Below are positions 11,411-23,594 of a DNA stretch of 24,000 bases, piece after piece. The first letter of the stretch is position 1. Every line of letters starts with the position of its first letter. The DNA comes from Paramaledivibacter caminithermalis DSM 15212 (GTDB taxonomy: Bacteria; Bacillota; Clostridia; Peptostreptococcales; Caminicellaceae), in assembly GCF_900142245.1 (NCBI RefSeq), contig NZ_FRAG01000006.1, positions 2,804 to 26,803 on the forward strand, written 5' to 3'. Under the pieces are notes generated by a model. That model did no database searches. It was not told the DNA's origin and saw only the letters and a program-made list of their open reading frames with translations. The translations under genes were made by a program, and so were the position numbers.

Positions 11411-11443
11411 AAACAAAAAAAGAGCAAGTGATTAGCCTACTCT
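11411..11443 (-). terminator. Rho-independent terminator at the end of the agr-like operon
   Basis: Minus strand reads AGAGUAGG-CUAAUCA-CUUGCUCU (8 bp including 2 G-U pairs) followed by UUUUUUUGUUU. Confidence 0.6.
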
Positions 11444-11465
11444 TTCTCCTATATTATACAATTTT

Positions 11466-11509
11466 GCACATAAAACGTGATGAAATCTCCTTCATCACGT
11501 TTTATGTGC
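11466..11509 (-). other. Perfect 19-bp stem / 6-nt loop hairpin spanning the agrB stop codon
   Basis: GCACATAAAACGTGATGAA-atctcc-TTCATCACGTTTTATGTGC with no mismatch. The agrB TAA (11502-11504) lies in the 5' arm on the minus strand. No U-tract follows (AAAAUUG). Confidence 0.6.
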
Positions 11510-12077
11510 CGAATAATAAATTGACAAACCCAAATATTGTAGCTAAAGTCATCATATCACTAATTTCTTGAAATCCAAATAAATATATGATTATATTAAT
11601 AGTAAATATTATTTTGATAGCCTTTAAGCCATTAGTTTTAAAATAACTTTTTTCTTCCTTAGATAGTCTTTTATTTATGTTATCTATAGTCCCAATTTTT
11701 ATCCCTATTATATAACTTATCATATAGACTAATAGTAATAAAAAGATATTAAAGTCAATATGATATCTTACAAATAAAGCAATCATAGGAACTACTATGC
11801 TTAACATGAGACATATCATACTGTTTTTTGTATGATATCCTCCAAAATATCTTCTTATAAATATAAATGTAACTGTATAAACCACTACCGATGAAAAAGC
11901 AGCCAATTTAGGAATTAATATATTTAGAAGCATTGAAATTACGAATAAACTAACAATCCATATTAGATAATTCATTAAAATCTCAACTGAATATATTAAT
12001 ATCTCTTCCCTTTCTCTATCAGATTCACTTATTAAAGCCATGTATTTACCTAGCTTTACAGCAATATTATGTATCAT
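11502..12077 (-). CDS. agrB: AgrB-family membrane endopeptidase (AIP precursor processing)
   Basis: 191 aa and polytopic. The motif RRYFGGYHTKNSMIC has His and Cys 7 residues apart, as for catalytic H77/C84 of S. aureus AgrB. Its ATG overlaps the stop of the upstream regulator (ATGA). Confidence 0.85.
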   Translation of the reverse strand: MIHNIAVKLGKYMALISESDREREEILIYSVEILMNYLIWIVSLFVISMLLNILIPKLAAFSSVVVYTVTFIFIRRYFGGYHTKNSMICLMLSIVVPMIALFVRYHIDFNIFLLLLVYMISYIIGIKIGTIDNINKRLSKEEKSYFKTNGLKAIKIIFTINIIIYLFGFQEISDMMTLATIFGFVNLLFGT

Positions 12078-12793
12078 TTATTGGATACCTTCTTTTCTTC
12101 TATAAGCTCCTTTTCCACCACATCAACAAACTTACTTAGAAATTCTATGTTTTTAGGTCTTGTTACAAAACCTAATTTACCAAAGGAATTATTATCAAGG
12201 TTTTGTATGATGTTATTTAAGGATCGTCTAATAGATGATTTTTTTTCATCATTTTGATTAGAGAGGGTATCATATACCCTGCTTTTAACCTCCTCATCAT
12301 ACAAAAGCACCTTTATCATTTTTTGAAAAAGGGATTTTTGTTTTAGATCGCATCTATTATTTAATATTTCTTCTGTTTTATCATTTACCTTATTATCTCT
12401 GGAGATGTAGATATCTCTTTTTACAATGTTTAAAACCATATTGAGATCTTCAAATCTCATAGGCTTACCGACCTTATAATCGTAGTATTTCATACGCTTA
12501 ATAATTTCACTGTCATGTAGAAACGTTATTAATATAATAATTGGTCTATATTCTTTTAAAAGATATCCTACCAGCTTATCTCCTTCTAAATAAGGCATAA
12601 AATGGTCAGTTATAATGATATCAAAATCGCATGTTTTCAATATTGCTTCTTTTGCCTGATTGGGGTTATAAAAACCTACAGGGATAATGTCCTTATGAAA
12701 TTCTGATATATATTCACATACAATATCTACTTGCTCCTTAAAGTCATCTATTATAGCTGCTTTAATCTTAATATGATCACCCTCCCTTCTCAA
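12074..12793 (-). CDS. Response regulator, Spo0A paralog (REC domain plus Spo0A_C-like DNA-binding domain)
   Basis: The REC domain has all key residues: IIDD, IIITD(HFMPYLEGD), ILIT and GKP. The C-terminal roughly 105 aa aligns by eye to the Spo0A C-domain. SSIRRSLNNIIQNL matches [20 protein letters not shown] matches FGYT, and RPKNIEFLSKFVD matches KPTNSEFIAMVAD. TTG start with an AAGGAG SD 5 nt upstream. Confidence 0.8.
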   Translation of the reverse strand: MRREGDHIKIKAAIIDDFKEQVDIVCEYISEFHKDIIPVGFYNPNQAKEAILKTCDFDIIITDHFMPYLEGDKLVGYLLKEYRPIIILITFLHDSEIIKRMKYYDYKVGKPMRFEDLNMVLNIVKRDIYISRDNKVNDKTEEILNNRCDLKQKSLFQKMIKVLLYDEEVKSRVYDTLSNQNDEKKSSIRRSLNNIIQNLDNNSFGKLGFVTRPKNIEFLSKFVDVVEKELIEEKKVSNK

Positions 12794-12841: not shown

Positions 12842-12973
12842 TTATTTTCTTAATGCTTTAGGTATTTCTGGTTCGCCAAATACAATTGAACATGCATTGC
12901 TTTGAACCATAGTAGATGCAAATGTGATTAAAGCTGGTACCAATGCCAATAATGCTTTGTTAAGCTTTTTCAT
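12842..12973 (-). CDS. agrD: AgrD autoinducing-peptide precursor (43 aa), absent from the ORF track
   Basis: Hand translation gives MKKLNKALLALVPALITFASTMVQSNACSIVFGEPEIPKALRK. It has an amphipathic leader, Cys plus 4 residues (CSIVF), then an E-P-E-I-P-K-x-L tail like DEVEVPKEL of S. aureus AgrD. An AAGGAGGTGA SD lies 6 nt upstream. The start overlaps the upstream gene by 14 nt. Confidence 0.85.
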   Translation of the reverse strand: MKKLNKALLALVPALITFASTMVQSNACSIVFGEPEIPKALRK

Positions 12974-14186
12974 CCTTTGTCACCTCCTTATAGGGTATTT
13001 GTATATCCAATGCAAAGTATCTGTCCTTGATGATTCGATACCTTGCATTTTCGCCGATAAGGGAAAGCTTTATATTCTCCATATTCAAGTCATGCTCAAG
13101 TATTTTTATCAGCCTTCTTTTTTCTAAGTCATTTAATATAATTTTCAGATTAAAGCTTATATATTCCCTTAGCTCTAAAGTTACAATTACATTTTCAAAG
13201 CTTATTTTCCTCAAGGCAGAATATAAAAGTATCTCCAACATAAAATAAAGCTTCTTAAAATCATAGTCTACAAAACCCAGCCTCTCATCTATGTGATAAT
13301 AAAAGTTTTTATTTGATTCCTTCATGCTTTTAAGGATTTCCTCTATCTTTTCAATTTCAATAACATTTAAATATGTCTTCATTAAATTCAAATAATAATA
13401 TATTTCATCTTCTGTGCTATTATATAAAAGGGTCTGAAAGGTGCTTTGGGGACTATTTAATATCTCCTTGTAATTCTCATATAATATGGTTCTACTCAAT
13501 AAAACCATAGTTACTATCATAAACACTATCGTCTCTATGAGGAATATTTGTATATTTATAAATATTTTTCTAGCATCAATATCATATAAGTATATCTTGA
13601 AAAAAATTTCATTATAATTCATACTAAATAAATAACCGCTTAAAAGCAGAGCTACTATAACATGAAAGGTTATCTTCTTCGATTTTGATAATAGATTCCA
13701 TGGTAAAGTCAATAGTTTATTTGATTTTAAATTAAATTTTAAGCATATAAATACTGTTATTATTTGAAAAATCCTAGTGGGAAACGAAAATATAAATCTA
13801 TACTGAAATAGATTACCAGAATATTTAATTTTTAACAAATTAATAATAGGTGTAGAAAAAGTTTCATAAAATATTAAAGCAAATACCGCTAGATATCCAC
13901 CTAATAAAGCTTGTCTAACATTAAGTCTAAAAACAACTTTAAGAATAAGAATATAGTATAATAAAGATATAATACTCATTATTATAAAACTATCTATATT
14001 TTTCCTTATTATGATTAATACTAAAGGAAAAACAATGGAAACCAATAATGTTTTAATTACAAACCTTAAACTAAACTCTTTAGATTTAAAAATATTTCCC
14101 TTGATTAGAATTATTCCTATTAAGCATGTTAATAGAACCTCGGGAGTACCGACAATTATTGCATCAATTAAACTCATATTTTCCAT
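12960..14186 (-). CDS. AgrC-like polytopic membrane sensor paralog 2, kinase motifs not recognisable
   Basis: 6-7 TM helices by eye plus a cytoplasmic domain of about 180 aa. That domain resembles the AgrC/HPK10 DHp+CA layout but lacks the H-box, N-box Asn and G1/G2 glycines. Start trimmed to ATG 14186 (MENMSL) after a GGGGAGAG SD. Confidence 0.65.
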   Translation of the reverse strand: MENMSLIDAIIVGTPEVLLTCLIGIILIKGNIFKSKEFSLRFVIKTLLVSIVFPLVLIIIRKNIDSFIIMSIISLLYYILILKVVFRLNVRQALLGGYLAVFALIFYETFSTPIINLLKIKYSGNLFQYRFIFSFPTRIFQIITVFICLKFNLKSNKLLTLPWNLLSKSKKITFHVIVALLLSGYLFSMNYNEIFFKIYLYDIDARKIFINIQIFLIETIVFMIVTMVLLSRTILYENYKEILNSPQSTFQTLLYNSTEDEIYYYLNLMKTYLNVIEIEKIEEILKSMKESNKNFYYHIDERLGFVDYDFKKLYFMLEILLYSALRKISFENVIVTLELREYISFNLKIILNDLEKRRLIKILEHDLNMENIKLSLIGENARYRIIKDRYFALDIQIPYKEVTKDEKA

Positions 14187-15509: not shown

Positions 15510-15673
15510 AGGTCTTCCCCCAATATTCATTCTTATATACTTATATTTTACAAAAAAATGTAATTTCCCACAAGATGTTTTCTTCGACATTATTTTACAT
15601 TTTTCACGTCCTTGTTATATCAAGCCTTTCACGATTTAATAATATGCTATAGGAATTTAAGTAAAGATTTTAA

Positions 15674-16346: not shown

Positions 16347-16354
16347 CCTAATGC

Positions 16355-20809: not shown

Positions 20810-21496
20810 ATGAATATACTTGTATGTGATGATGATAAAGAAATAGTTGAGGCCATAGAAATATATCTAAAAAATGAAGGTTACAACATCTTTAAAGCTA
20901 ATAATGGATTAGAAGCATTGAAAATATTAGATAATTCAGAAGTTCATCTTATTATAATGGATATTATGATGCCCAAGATGGATGGTATGAAGGCTACAAA
21001 TAAAATTAGAAAAACTAAAAATATTCCAGTTATAATGCTTTCAGCTAAATCTGAAGACATGGATAAAGTAATGGGCTTAAATATAGGAGCTGATGATTAT
21101 GTTACTAAGCCCTTTAATCCATTGGAGCTTATAGCTAGAGTTAAATCTCAGCTTAGAAGGTATACAACCCTCGGAAGCTATACCCAAACAACAGGAGTTT
21201 ATAAAACTGGTGAATTAATCATAAATGATGAGAGTAAAAAAGTAACTGTAGATGGTGAATTAGTTAAATTAACACCTATAGAATATAAGATACTTAAATT
21301 TTTGACAGAAAATGCTGGTAAAGTATATTCCATAGAACAAATATATGAAAATGTTTGGCAAGAGCCAGCATATAACCCAGAAAACACAGTGGCTGTGCAT
21401 ATTAGAAGAATAAGAGAAAAAATAGAGATAAATCCAAAGAAACCAAAATACTTAAAGGTGGTGTGGGGAATTGGCTATAAAGTGGAGAATATTTAG
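20810..21496 (+). CDS. OmpR-family DNA-binding response regulator
   Basis: REC domain (DDD, IIMDIMMP, MLSA, TKPF) plus a winged-helix trans_reg_C domain (LTPIEYKILKFL, VHIRRIREKIE, VWGIGYK). Confidence 0.93.
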   Translation: MNILVCDDDKEIVEAIEIYLKNEGYNIFKANNGLEALKILDNSEVHLIIMDIMMPKMDGMKATNKIRKTKNIPVIMLSAKSEDMDKVMGLNIGADDYVTKPFNPLELIARVKSQLRRYTTLGSYTQTTGVYKTGELIINDESKKVTVDGELVKLTPIEYKILKFLTENAGKVYSIEQIYENVWQEPAYNPENTVAVHIRRIREKIEINPKKPKYLKVVWGIGYKVENI

Positions 21497-23594
21497 CCAT
21501 TCATTAATAACAAAAATTATTGTTTTTATAATAACTATAGCTTGTTTTTCTTGTAGTATAACAATGTTTATAAATCTTATAGAGATAACAAATAGTGACA
21601 TAGATATAGTTTTTGGAGATAATTATTATAGTAGTCATGGATATATAAATGAATTGTACAATTTAACTAGATATCTATCCCAATTAATTATAACTTATAA
21701 AAGCCAAGATTACATATTATCTGGTGGAACCGTTACTGAAAAAGACTTTGAAATAGAAAAAGAAATTCTTTTTTCAGAGTTCCAAAATAATTCAAATAAA
21801 TATAATCCTAATTGGTCCCGTGAAAAAAATTATGAAGCATTTGAAAGGTATGCCGCCAATAAAATATTAGAAGAAAAAAATAGATTGATTCAGGAGGATT
21901 TAAAAAAGTTTAAATCATATTTGAAAAAATTGCAAAACTTAAATGGAATCTTATATTATATAAGCGATGGTGAAAATGAATTTACCAACAGTCCAAATAA
22001 ATCTAAAGAATATTTTAAAAAATATCCTTCTTATATAGTATTTGATAAATCTGATGAAATAATATTTCCAAATGAAGTTAAAAATAATCCAGAATATAAT
22101 TGGATTAAAAACAATATTGCACAATTAGTTCAAGAAGACTATGTTATGTATATTGCATTTATTGAAGGTCCTTTGAATGATCGAATTAAAGAATGGGAAA
22201 AAAATAAAGCAGCTGTCACTGAAACCTTATATATAATAGCATACTTACTTGCAGGCTTATTGATTTCTTTTATATATTTAGTATTGGTTATTGGCAGAAA
22301 GTCATTTAATGATAATAAGCTTCATTTTAATTTCATAAATAAGCTCTACAATGATATCAATATTGTCCTGTGCTTAGGCATTATAGCATCATGGTTTGGA
22401 GCTATGGGATTTGTATTTGATAATGATGTATATGAAATCATACTTCCTATAACTGCTATATTAGGTACTTTGGGATTAATATTAGTCCTATCATTAGTTA
22501 AACATATTAAAAATAGGACACTCATTAAGCATACATTAGTTTATACTATATTGAGCAGATTTTTTAGTTTCATAAAGTCCATCTATAATAGTGGTAGTGT
22601 TGGAATAAAAATTATATTAATAGTAATAGGTTATCCCTTAATAATAGGATTATCTTTCTTTATATTTGTACTAGGTCTATATAATGTCATACTAGTTATC
22701 CTAGCATTGTTTATTTCTCCTACAGCTATAGGAATAGCATTATGGTTATCACTCAAAAAAGTAAAAGAATTCAATGCAATAAAGGAAGGTGTAGAAAAAA
22801 TAAAAAATGGATATATACATCATAAAATAGACGTATCTGGAAATGGAGAGTTTGGGAAGCTTGCTTCTAATATTAATAGCATAGCCGATGGATTAAATAA
22901 AGCAGTTGACAATGAACTTAAGAGTGAGCGATTAAAAACAGAGCTTATTAGCAATGTATCCCATGATATAAGAACTCCCCTTACTTCTATAATAACCTAT
23001 ATAGATTTGTTGAAAAAGGAGGGCTTGACCTCAGAAAACTCTGAAAAATATTTAGGTGTATTGGAAAAAAAATCTTTGAGATTAAAGTTTTTGACAGATG
23101 ACCTATTTGAAGCTTCCAAGGCATCTAGTGGTGATATTCCTGTTAATATTGAAAAAATAGATATAGTCTCTCTGCTAACCCAAGGTATGGGTGAATTAGA
23201 TGATAAGATAGCTTCTTCGGGATTAAAATTTAAGTTTAACTATCCAGCAGAAAAGGTATTTGTTAAAGCCGACGGTAAGCTCCTATGGCGTGTAATAGAA
23301 AACCTTATGTCAAATATCTTTAAATATGCCCTTAGAAGCTCAAGAGTTTATATCGATGTCCTTGATTCAGACAATAGCGTTTCTATTGTTTTTAAAAATA
23401 TATCTTCTTACGAACTTAACATAAATGCAGATGAGTTAATGGAACGTTTTAAACGTGGAGATGAATCTAGAAACAGTGAAGGCAGCGGTCTTGGACTATC
23501 AATTGCAAAAAGTCTTGTGGAACTACAGAATGGTGAATTCAGTATAGAAATTGATGGTGACTTATTTAAATCTATAATTGTTCTGCCTAAATAG
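21471..23594 (+). CDS. Sensor histidine kinase (large extracytoplasmic domain, multi-TM block, HAMP, HisKA, HATPase_c)
   Basis: H-box SNVSHDIRTPLTSI, N-box LMSNIFKYA and G-box GSGLGLSIAKSLVE. TTG start at 21471 has AAGGTGGTG 7 nt upstream and overlaps the regulator gene end. The first in-frame ATG would fall inside TM1. Confidence 0.9.
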   Translation: MAIKWRIFSHSLITKIIVFIITIACFSCSITMFINLIEITNSDIDIVFGDNYYSSHGYINELYNLTRYLSQLIITYKSQDYILSGGTVTEKDFEIEKEILFSEFQNNSNKYNPNWSREKNYEAFERYAANKILEEKNRLIQEDLKKFKSYLKKLQNLNGILYYISDGENEFTNSPNKSKEYFKKYPSYIVFDKSDEIIFPNEVKNNPEYNWIKNNIAQLVQEDYVMYIAFIEGPLNDRIKEWEKNKAAVTETLYIIAYLLAGLLISFIYLVLVIGRKSFNDNKLHFNFINKLYNDINIVLCLGIIASWFGAMGFVFDNDVYEIILPITAILGTLGLILVLSLVKHIKNRTLIKHTLVYTILSRFFSFIKSIYNSGSVGIKIILIVIGYPLIIGLSFFIFVLGLYNVILVILALFISPTAIGIALWLSLKKVKEFNAIKEGVEKIKNGYIHHKIDVSGNGEFGKLASNINSIADGLNKAVDNELKSERLKTELISNVSHDIRTPLTSIITYIDLLKKEGLTSENSEKYLGVLEKKSLRLKFLTDDLFEASKASSGDIPVNIEKIDIVSLLTQGMGELDDKIASSGLKFKFNYPAEKVFVKADGKLLWRVIENLMSNIFKYALRSSRVYIDVLDSDNSVSIVFKNISSYELNINADELMERFKRGDESRNSEGSGLGLSIAKSLVELQNGEFSIEIDGDLFKSIIVLPK

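Follow-up and report, generated by a model that had tools for sequence, protein, structure and literature searches.

A predicted agrD gene of Paramaledivibacter caminithermalis in an operon with membrane proteins that lack histidine-kinase motifs

Introduction

Does a 43-codon open reading frame (ORF) that begins inside the end of a membrane-protein gene encode the precursor of an agr-type autoinducing peptide (AIP), and if so, which of its neighbors would make, sense or answer that peptide? The question is raised by the minus strand of a 24,000-nucleotide (nt) stretch of Paramaledivibacter caminithermalis DSM 15212 (contig NZ_FRAG01000006.1, positions 2,804 to 26,803), which we call the window and whose own coordinates we use throughout. 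An earlier reading of the letters without database searches (here, the sequence-only reading) had described the ORF as a hidden AgrD precursor joined to the gene of its putative receptor. With a probability of roughly 0.88, we conclude that the ORF is a functional agrD in a five-gene operon, and that its product is processed by AgrB to a five-residue ring and then loses its leader. The peptide itself would be ordinary, one more predicted AgrD from deep-sea and saline-sediment Clostridia. The operon appears to be the unusual part, because its membrane partner and its regulator do not fit the AgrC/AgrA paradigm.

A 43-codon agrD-type gene with its own ribosome-binding site

The ORF reads as MKKLNKALLALVPALITFASTMVQSNACSIVFGEPEIPKALRK on the minus strand. 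Its parts, and the two membrane-protein genes that precede it, are as follows.

12842..12973, minus strand: agrD, 43 codons plus stop (ATG 12973..12971, stop 12844..12842)
12973..12893, minus strand: agrD leader, M1 to A27
12892..12878, minus strand: predicted ring of agrD, C28-S-I-V-F32
12877..12845, minus strand: predicted AgrB-recognition tail of agrD, G33 to K43 (GEPEIPKALRK)
12980..12989, minus strand: Shine-Dalgarno (SD) sequence AAGGAGGTGA of agrD, inside codons K-E-V of membrane protein paralog 2
12960..14186, minus strand: membrane protein paralog 2, 408 amino acids (aa) (NCBI version P0002, 'hypothetical protein'), seven predicted transmembrane helices
14280..15509, minus strand: membrane protein paralog 1, 409 aa from ATG 15509, no Pfam or NCBIfam match

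A minus-strand 43-aa ORF with a strong SD in the last codons of the upstream gene, as the sequence-only reading had it, can thus be read directly from the DNA. The spacing from GGAGG to ATG is 9 nt, and the stop codon of paralog 2 (TAA, 12962..12960) leaves an overlap of 14 nt with agrD. The gene was hidden only in the sense that the ORF track behind that reading had missed it; public gene calls include it, and RefSeq names the exact peptide "AgrD family cyclic lactone autoinducer peptide" (WP_084111653.1, Paramaledivibacter caminithermalis), as it does the Wukongibacter orthologs. The AgrD identity is therefore not new, since the public annotation already has both gene and name.

The peptide consists of a leader, a Cys followed by exactly four residues, and an acidic, Pro-containing tail (C28-SIVF-GEPEIPKALRK). 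C28, residue 32 and E34 occupy the same positions as in Staphylococcus aureus AgrD-I, in which C28 and M32 form the ring and D33 and E34 are needed for cleavage by AgrB (PMC10196373). A search with an AgrD-family hidden Markov model (HMM), which the earlier reading had proposed, gave 23.8 bits on NCBIfam TIGR04223 (cutoff 19), and five orthologs also score above the cutoff (20.2 to 29.5 bits). Together with conservation in related loci, this match upholds the description of an AgrD precursor with one Cys, exactly four further ring residues and a conserved acidic, Pro-containing tail. The leader had been called amphipathic, which was mistaken: unlike the staphylococcal amphipathic helix, it is basic and hydrophobic, resembles a signal peptide and ends in SNA|C. 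Among the comparisons drawn in that reading, the CLWFT ring of Clostridium perfringens is confirmed in the literature, while the MKKLNK leader (C. perfringens) and DEVEVPKEL (S. aureus) could not be confirmed in the searchable text.

Conservation in close and distant loci

Orthologous loci were reached via homologs of the membrane proteins. The close set comprises seven loci: the window and those of Wukongibacter baidiensis (L001), Wukongibacter sp. M2B1 (L002) and several metagenomes (L003, L007, L008 and L010). A further locus, L004, is identical to the window. Scanning genomes with the close family yielded only the two Wukongibacter genomes. In each of the six other close loci, a 43-aa gene with an ATG or GTG start overlaps the membrane-protein gene in the same way; the one in L010 had been missed by the gene caller and was recovered from the DNA. 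Across the seven loci, 29 of the 43 residues are invariant, including VQSNAC and GEPEIPKxLRK, so that the Cys and the EPEIPK tail, on whose conservation in orthologs the sequence-only reading had staked its case, are both retained. The ring occurs in six variants (CSIVF, CCSGY, CALGY twice, CCGGL, CWLGH and CSIAH). Counted pairwise in the Nei-Gojobori style, pN/pS is lowest in VQSNAC (0.00) and the tail (0.08), intermediate in the leader (0.38) and highest in the ring (1.46), in a small sample with nonindependent pairs. Conserved predicted processing signals thus surround a diversifying, putative specificity determinant, which is the classic AgrD picture. Because the same gene with the same overlap recurs in six other loci and shows an in-frame selection pattern, a chance ORF is excluded.

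The two paralogs differ in this ribosome-binding site. All seven 3' ends of the paralog just before agrD contain GGAGG, against 0 of 7 for the other paralog; GGAGGTG before agrD is invariant (7/7 loci), and the equivalent codons of paralog 1 lack it. The GGAGG difference between the two 3' ends therefore argues that the agrD SD is under selection.

Four distant loci, whose membrane proteins are about 30% identical, were found by prediction. Many short members of the membrane family end in ...EGGVINEED or similar, which back-translates to GGAGGTG followed by an out-of-frame ATGAAGAAG; an overlapping agrD was predicted from this and then confirmed in the DNA. In each distant locus, the membrane-protein gene is followed directly by a small gene with the pattern C-x4-(G/Y)E..(I/R)P.

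L011: 285-aa membrane protein, 44-aa gene with a 14-nt overlap (...SANAC-ASMA-GETEIPDILK), receiver protein, AgrB
L012: small gene (...VSAC-TAGM-GETTRP...) after the membrane-protein gene
L013: small gene (...KKC-TALC-YEEEIP...), then receiver protein, then an unannotated gene cut by the contig end
L014: two membrane paralogs, small gene (...NSAC-IILT-GEIKIPKSLK), AgrB; without a receiver gene

The first tail residue is Y rather than G in L013 only, among the seven close and four distant loci. A membrane-protein gene adjoins agrD in 11 of 11 loci examined, and across the whole family it is directly followed or overlapped by agrD; the 14-nt overlap is therefore real, but the sequence-only reading erred in calling such an arrangement unusual. 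The junction ties the membrane family to AIP biology and is silent on whether its members sense, process or export the peptide. Single-protein scans of genome and metagenome contigs with the family members P0021 and P0023 gave no match.

The operon and its AgrB

The 43-codon gene is the third of five minus-strand genes, in the order membrane protein 1, membrane protein 2, agrD, receiver-domain regulator and agrB. We treat these as one operon because there is no terminator between the genes, a hairpin follows agrB, and terminators lie upstream at 16349 and 15874. The genes flanking the operon are housekeeping genes (valS, folC, pgsA and speE), and proteins of the window match those of P. caminithermalis DSM 15212 exactly.

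12074..12793, minus strand: response-regulator-like gene (ORF-track start TTG 12793; probable true start ATT 12772..12770)
11502..12077, minus strand: agrB, membrane peptidase/cyclase of 191 aa (Pfam AgrB PF04647, 84.6 bits, cutoff 23)
11415..11449, minus strand: terminator-like hairpin and T-run closing the operon (14-pair stem; 5 such sites vs 0.7 expected)

The agrB gene lies about 770 bp downstream of agrD and shares 4 nt (ATGA) with the regulator gene. Every related locus with a long enough contig also encodes an AgrB. The segment RRYFGGYH82...C89 is invariant among AgrB orthologs, and its His-Cys spacing is that of the S. aureus catalytic pair H77/C84 (PMC10196373).

Predicted maturation and mature signal

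From these features, we propose a maturation pathway. As part of the five-gene transcript, agrD would rely for its translation on a strong SD of its own within the final codons of membrane protein 2, and the basic, hydrophobic leader would bring the 43-aa precursor to the membrane. AgrB (H82/C89) would then cut after F32, releasing GEPEIPKALRK, and join the F32 carbonyl to the C28 thiol to give the five-residue ring C-S-I-V-F. By analogy with known AgrB proteins, AgrB-dependent cyclization of C28 to F32 is well supported. The leader would be removed next. Cleavage directly before the Cys is favored by the invariant SNA|C junction and by clostridial precedent. The resulting tail-less peptide may rearrange by an S-to-N acyl shift to homodetic cyclo(CSIVF), with an [M+H]+ of 550.2694, so the mature signal may be this cyclopeptide rather than a stable thiolactone. 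Fast divergence of the ring between related species would set the specificity of the signal.

The precedent comes from the same class, Clostridia, as the window organism. Clostridial AIPs without an N-terminal extension pass from a cryptic thiolactone to homodetic cyclopeptides (Molloy et al., PMC8251862). Tail-less cyclic AIPs of Clostridia include Rc-AIP1 of R. cellulolyticum, [CLWFT] of C. perfringens and [CVLVTL] of C. acetobutylicum, and the table of a recent primer gives the AIPs of C. perfringens, C. acetobutylicum and L. plantarum as ring-only (PMC12312760). The window precursor resembles the clostridial ones in the Ala that immediately precedes the ring Cys, in the ring size of five residues and in the conserved Pro of its tail (PMC8251862; PMC12312760; PMC6534674). 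Given these common precursor features, a tail-less homodetic product is the likeliest prediction for this peptide. The five-residue ring predicted by the sequence-only reading is thus kept, while its stability as a thiolactone is not assured, given that tail-less clostridial AIPs rearrange (PMC8251862).

A signal of the staphylococcal kind, a thiolactone that keeps an N-terminal tail (NA-, SNA- or QSNA-[CSIVF]), is plausible, although we lean against it. The residues VQSNA before the Cys are invariant, with a pN/pS of 0, and could form an exocyclic tail that contacts a receptor; tails are also predicted for the C. botulinum and C. difficile AIPs in the table of PMC12312760. Against this, those clostridial AIPs whose structure has been determined by experiment have no tail and are homodetic (PMC8251862), the three ring-only AIPs just named carry no such tail, and S-N-A|C has small residues at -1 and -3, as expected for cleavage of the signal-peptidase type directly before the Cys, the (-3, -1) rule having been applied by eye rather than computed.

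The membrane-protein family

The two paralogs are 58% identical. A 436-aa ORF call for paralog 1 (ATG 15590) was overextended into the promoter; its real start is ATG 15509, because the homologs begin at an equivalent MDNMSL and a GGGGGA SD precedes this position. The AlphaFold2 model of paralog 2 (mean predicted local distance difference test score [pLDDT] 62) has seven membrane helices and a cytoplasmic alpha/beta domain of about 170 to 175 aa. Read on the sequence by the positive-inside rule, the N-terminus lies outside and the C-terminus inside.

Searches for known domains in these proteins returned little. Neither paralog matches any Pfam or NCBIfam model, a scan of just the cytoplasmic domain with E values up to 10 adds none, and no HisKA or HATPase HMM matches the membrane proteins even at E 10. 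A full HMMER profile search of 1.84 billion representatives returned only 78 relatives, and 0 of 10 tested had a significant Pfam domain. Against PDB sequences, the family profile found nothing above background (Aurora kinase, for example, at E 0.28). Structure comparison gave more. Nearly all Foldseek matches in the PDB are catalytic and ATP-binding (CA) domains of histidine kinases (best E 0.0096), and AgrC (4BXI) is among them, with a TM score of 0.56, a root-mean-square deviation of 4.3 A and an E value of about 0.01. On the strength of this modeled fold, the membrane protein probably descends from a kinase.

The family alignment comprises 91 sequences (the P0002-P0097 family), 29 of them full-length and 62 membrane-only proteins of about 280 aa. 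No column has more than 34% His in the 91 sequences and no His is invariant in 14 close homologs, which leaves no candidate for a phospho-accepting His; in three full-length members, the 175 cytoplasmic residues include not a single His. The ATP-lid motifs D.G.G (G1) and G.G.G (G2) occur in 0 of the 29 full-length members, Gly makes up 1.7% of the cytoplasmic domain, and the N-box Asn is lost, being Y or D in the window paralogs. The best-conserved positions are instead polar residues of the membrane domain (E16, 94%; R138, 94%; R61, 89%; E108, 88%; Q141, 81%) together with W163, and a juxtamembrane Ser (S257) is also conserved in the family. In predicted architecture, then, the membrane proteins appear to resemble AgrC, but by sequence they fail the features that define a kinase. 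The sequence-only reading had named the upstream gene a sensor; the topology and the weak fold match agree with that, but the protein is not demonstrably a receptor and is not a histidine kinase by its sequence. Kinase motifs are easily recognized elsewhere in this genome, as a plus-strand pair at 20810..23594 makes plain, unlike the agr-linked membrane proteins: it encodes a 228-aa OmpR-type regulator and a 707-aa kinase with an H-box-like SHDIRTPL and with GSGLGL, and, judged by sequence alone, it looks like a conventional two-component system.

What the family does can be read in two ways. In the first, the membrane proteins are AIP receptors derived from an AgrC-type kinase that signal to the Spo0A-like regulator without a His-Asp phosphotransfer of their own, for example by binding or sequestering it or by controlling another kinase or a phosphatase. 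We put this at slightly below even odds. In its favor are the length of 408 aa, the seven modeled helices, the orientation in the membrane, the kinase-like CA folds that include AgrC, the presence in the operon of a receiver protein with every phospho-acceptor residue, and the constant adjacency to agrD. The absence of a conserved His, of the G1 and G2 motifs and N-box Asn, and of any HisKA or HATPase match speaks against it, as do the 62 members that have no cytoplasmic domain, the low confidence of the model and the E value of only about 0.01 in the fold search, and the locus L014, which has no receiver gene.

In the second reading, the membrane proteins act on AgrD, by leader removal or AIP export, and the true receptor is encoded elsewhere; we find this doubtful. 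In S. aureus, leader removal and AIP export are performed or assisted by MroQ/SpsB. This reading would explain why polar and charged residues within the membrane are the conserved ones when the AIP ring itself is hypervariable, and why most family members are membrane-only. Tight translational linkage to agrD would suit a stoichiometric processing partner, and L014 has membrane proteins, agrD and agrB without a regulator. There is also precedent, in that AIP biosynthesis requires an integral membrane protease, MroQ (PMC9388083), and that some agrBD loci have no agrCA next to them (PMC12312760). On the other side, no protease or transporter family, CPBP/Abi and rhomboid included, shows similarity to the proteins, a protease or exporter would hardly be expected to carry the kinase-CA-like cytoplasmic domain that 29 members have, and a receiver protein is encoded in the same operon in most loci.

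The receiver-domain regulator and the promoter

The gene between agrD and agrB probably starts at a noncanonical ATT. This codon (12772..12770) lies 8 nt after a strong SD, GAAGGGAGG, and the W. sp. M2B1 locus (L002, position 8721) has the same SD and ATT. In L001 (7406) and L003 (8722), the receiver N-terminus IKIKAAIIDD is conserved and no in-frame ATG, GTG or TTG was found upstream, while in L011 (5029) an ATG stands at the position aligned to the ATT (GGGTGATCATATG vs GGGTGATCATATT). Public calls of the regulator in Wukongibacter-type loci are N-terminally truncated, at 215 and 188 aa.

The receiver domain matches Pfam Response_reg (26 bits) and TIGR02875 (E 1.4e-9), with the DD pair, phospho-acceptor Asp, Thr and Lys all conserved. 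Its best PDB matches are Spo0A receivers (E 1e-7 to 1.4e-13, the latter 1DZ3 with the family profile), whose E values beat those of other receivers by at least four orders of magnitude. Scans of six members of the regulator family detected no LytTR domain; BtsR, which is a LytTR regulator, gives a match of only 19 bits (E 7e-4) over residues 10-159. For the C-terminal domain of about 110 aa, an assignment as Spo0A_C was tried in four ways and is only suggestive, so we do not claim it. Pfam Spo0A_C matches the isolated domain at E 0.12 and gives nothing in full-length scans; hhalign against 1LQ1 (verified sequence) aligns 56 columns weakly, at 4% probability; and the C-terminal half aligns co-linearly, with weak support, with the Spo0A recognition helix and KPTNSEFI (RPKNIEFL). 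The AlphaFold2 model of the regulator (pLDDT 41.6) was left out of the fold search.

In its receiver and in the TGTCGAA element of the operon promoter, the system resembles Spo0A regulation. The regulator differs from Spo0A in its length (232 to 239 aa), in its score (37.6 bits vs an equivalog cutoff of 200) and in its location. Because it is encoded in an agr-type operon, we judge from the gene context that it is not the organism's own Spo0A. Nor does it appear to be an obligatory part of the module, since L014 (3501..6618) has two membrane paralogs, agrD and agrB and no receiver gene.

Upstream of the operon, the DNA of the seven close loci has diverged except for one conserved stretch.

15545..15600, minus strand: conserved promoter block, in the stretch of about 75 bp that alone is conserved in the diverged upstream DNA of the seven loci
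15598..15592, minus strand: TGTAAAA, within the block, about 10 bp upstream of TGTCGAA
15589..15583, minus strand: Spo0A-box-type TGTCGAA, invariant as TGTCGA(A/T) in the seven close loci
15573..15568, minus strand: putative weak -35 hexamer TTGTGG, 9 nt downstream of TGTCGAA
15550..15545, minus strand: putative -10 hexamer TAAAAT, with a 17-nt spacer from the -35

TGTCGA(A/T), which we take to be the Spo0A-box consensus, occurs in the 24-kb window once only, at 15589..15583. This arrangement suggests that transcription needs an activator, either Spo0A or the regulator encoded in the operon. A generic promoter scan showed no enrichment (42 found vs 42.3 expected), and the proposed promoter therefore rests on cross-species conservation.

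Surroundings of the distant loci

In three of the distant loci, the DNA next to the module has features of its own. Directly upstream of the module, L011 (215..1049), L012 (104..994) and L013 (1..496) encode a TPR protein followed by a signal-peptide-bearing ORF of 40 to 44 aa (...DPPDAFVVPQKIERVA, ...ADEPHGYITQKTKVVA and ...DPPDSGFKSTETVERVA). Each pair looks like an RRNPP-type receptor and pro-peptide, which would place two peptide-signaling systems side by side. The three loci also share an upstream DndB-like protein and an MrpR-like tyrosine recombinase (L011 1..3829, L012 1..3832 and L013 1..3326), and a PemK toxin gene is upstream in L011 and L012 as well, suggesting that the module rides on a mobile or defense-island-like element in these genomes. 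A tblastn search of plasmid and phage collections with the membrane proteins gave no match. Between agrD and the regulator gene, L011 (4985..5005) and L012 (5407..5428) have a GGGGAGA...TCTCCCC hairpin without a T-run, which may act as an attenuator or through RNA stability to set the ratio of agrD to regulator and agrB expression; the hairpin is absent from the window, which shares GGAGATTAATT only.

Discussion

Several observations weigh against the conclusion that the ORF is a functional agrD. The most distant peptides fail TIGR04223 (13.6 to 14.7 bits or no match), and the staphylococcal Pfam AgrD model PF05931 gives the window peptide 13.8 bits at a cutoff of 22.7. The agrD and agrB genes are not adjacent, with the regulator gene in between, and the operon has no canonical AgrC/AgrA pair, so autoinduction via the operon is unproven. 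The literature that we searched held no expression, peptide or genetic evidence for the organism or genus, and no publication on this peptide or on agr in Paramaledivibacter or Wukongibacter. A word-indexed homolog search with the 43-aa peptide returned the query alone and is uninformative. The baidienmycins, cyclic depsipeptides of Wukongibacter M2B1, were considered as a related product and ruled out, as they are products of nonribosomal peptide synthetases.

That the ORF is instead a Sec-secreted linear pheromone, another small secreted peptide unrelated to AgrB or a chance ORF is very improbable: the N-terminus does resemble a classical signal peptide and weakly matches the N-terminal models of Phr (13.3 bits) and SHP (12.6 bits), but these matches are far below cutoff and confined to MKKLNK..., the operon has no Rap, Rgg or TPR receptor, AgrB is encoded in the window and in seven other loci with long enough contigs, C-x4-GE..IP and ring-specific diversification are AgrD signatures, and conservation across 11 loci excludes chance. 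A Phr- or SHP-type pheromone was dropped as a candidate on the distance of its matches from the cutoff and the lack of a cognate receptor.

As an agrD operon, the locus invites comparison with agrBDCA of S. aureus. The two have in common a tripartite precursor of similar length with Cys at 28 and the ring end at 32, an acidic residue at 34 followed by ..PK.L, the His-x6-Cys catalytic pair of AgrB, and a hypervariable ring between conserved flanks. They differ in the leader, which is signal-peptide-like in the window and an amphipathic helix in S. aureus; in the tail, of 11 aa in the window and 14 in S. aureus; and in gene order, which is two membrane proteins, D, regulator and B in place of B-D-C-A. 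The window operon also has neither an AgrC kinase motif nor a LytTR AgrA.

Clostridial loci offer closer but still partial parallels. The C. perfringens agrBD and C. difficile agr1 loci, which have no cognate AgrCA, resemble the window operon as peptide-production modules whose sensing half is not a linked AgrC/AgrA, whereas the window operon encodes a dedicated, strictly syntenic membrane family and a receiver protein. The loci listed in the table of PMC12312760 are agrBD, agrBD with agrCA, agrD1B1 or agrB2D2C2A2, and none of those listed has an agrD that overlaps an upstream membrane-protein gene together with a regulator between agrD and agrB.

A speculative synthesis, which we consider unlikely as a whole, is that the operon represents an undescribed branch of agr-type systems. 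In such a branch, AgrC would be replaced by proteins without the His and the ATP lid, often membrane-only and translationally linked to the precursor, which would signal to a Spo0A-paralog regulator without classical His-Asp phosphotransfer; that regulator or Spo0A would feed back via the 0A-type promoter box, tying peptide signaling to sporulation-type logic.

In every locus examined, agrD is welded to a membrane family without recognizable domains or kinase motifs, usually together with a Spo0A-like regulator, and the six natural ring variants form a synthesizable series for studying specificity. Should the membrane proteins sense the peptide, agr signaling does not always need a histidine kinase; should they process or export it, they become candidates for late steps in the maturation of AIPs, a stage that is still poorly understood. 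Simple genetics and mass spectrometry can test the two possibilities, and each outcome would be informative.

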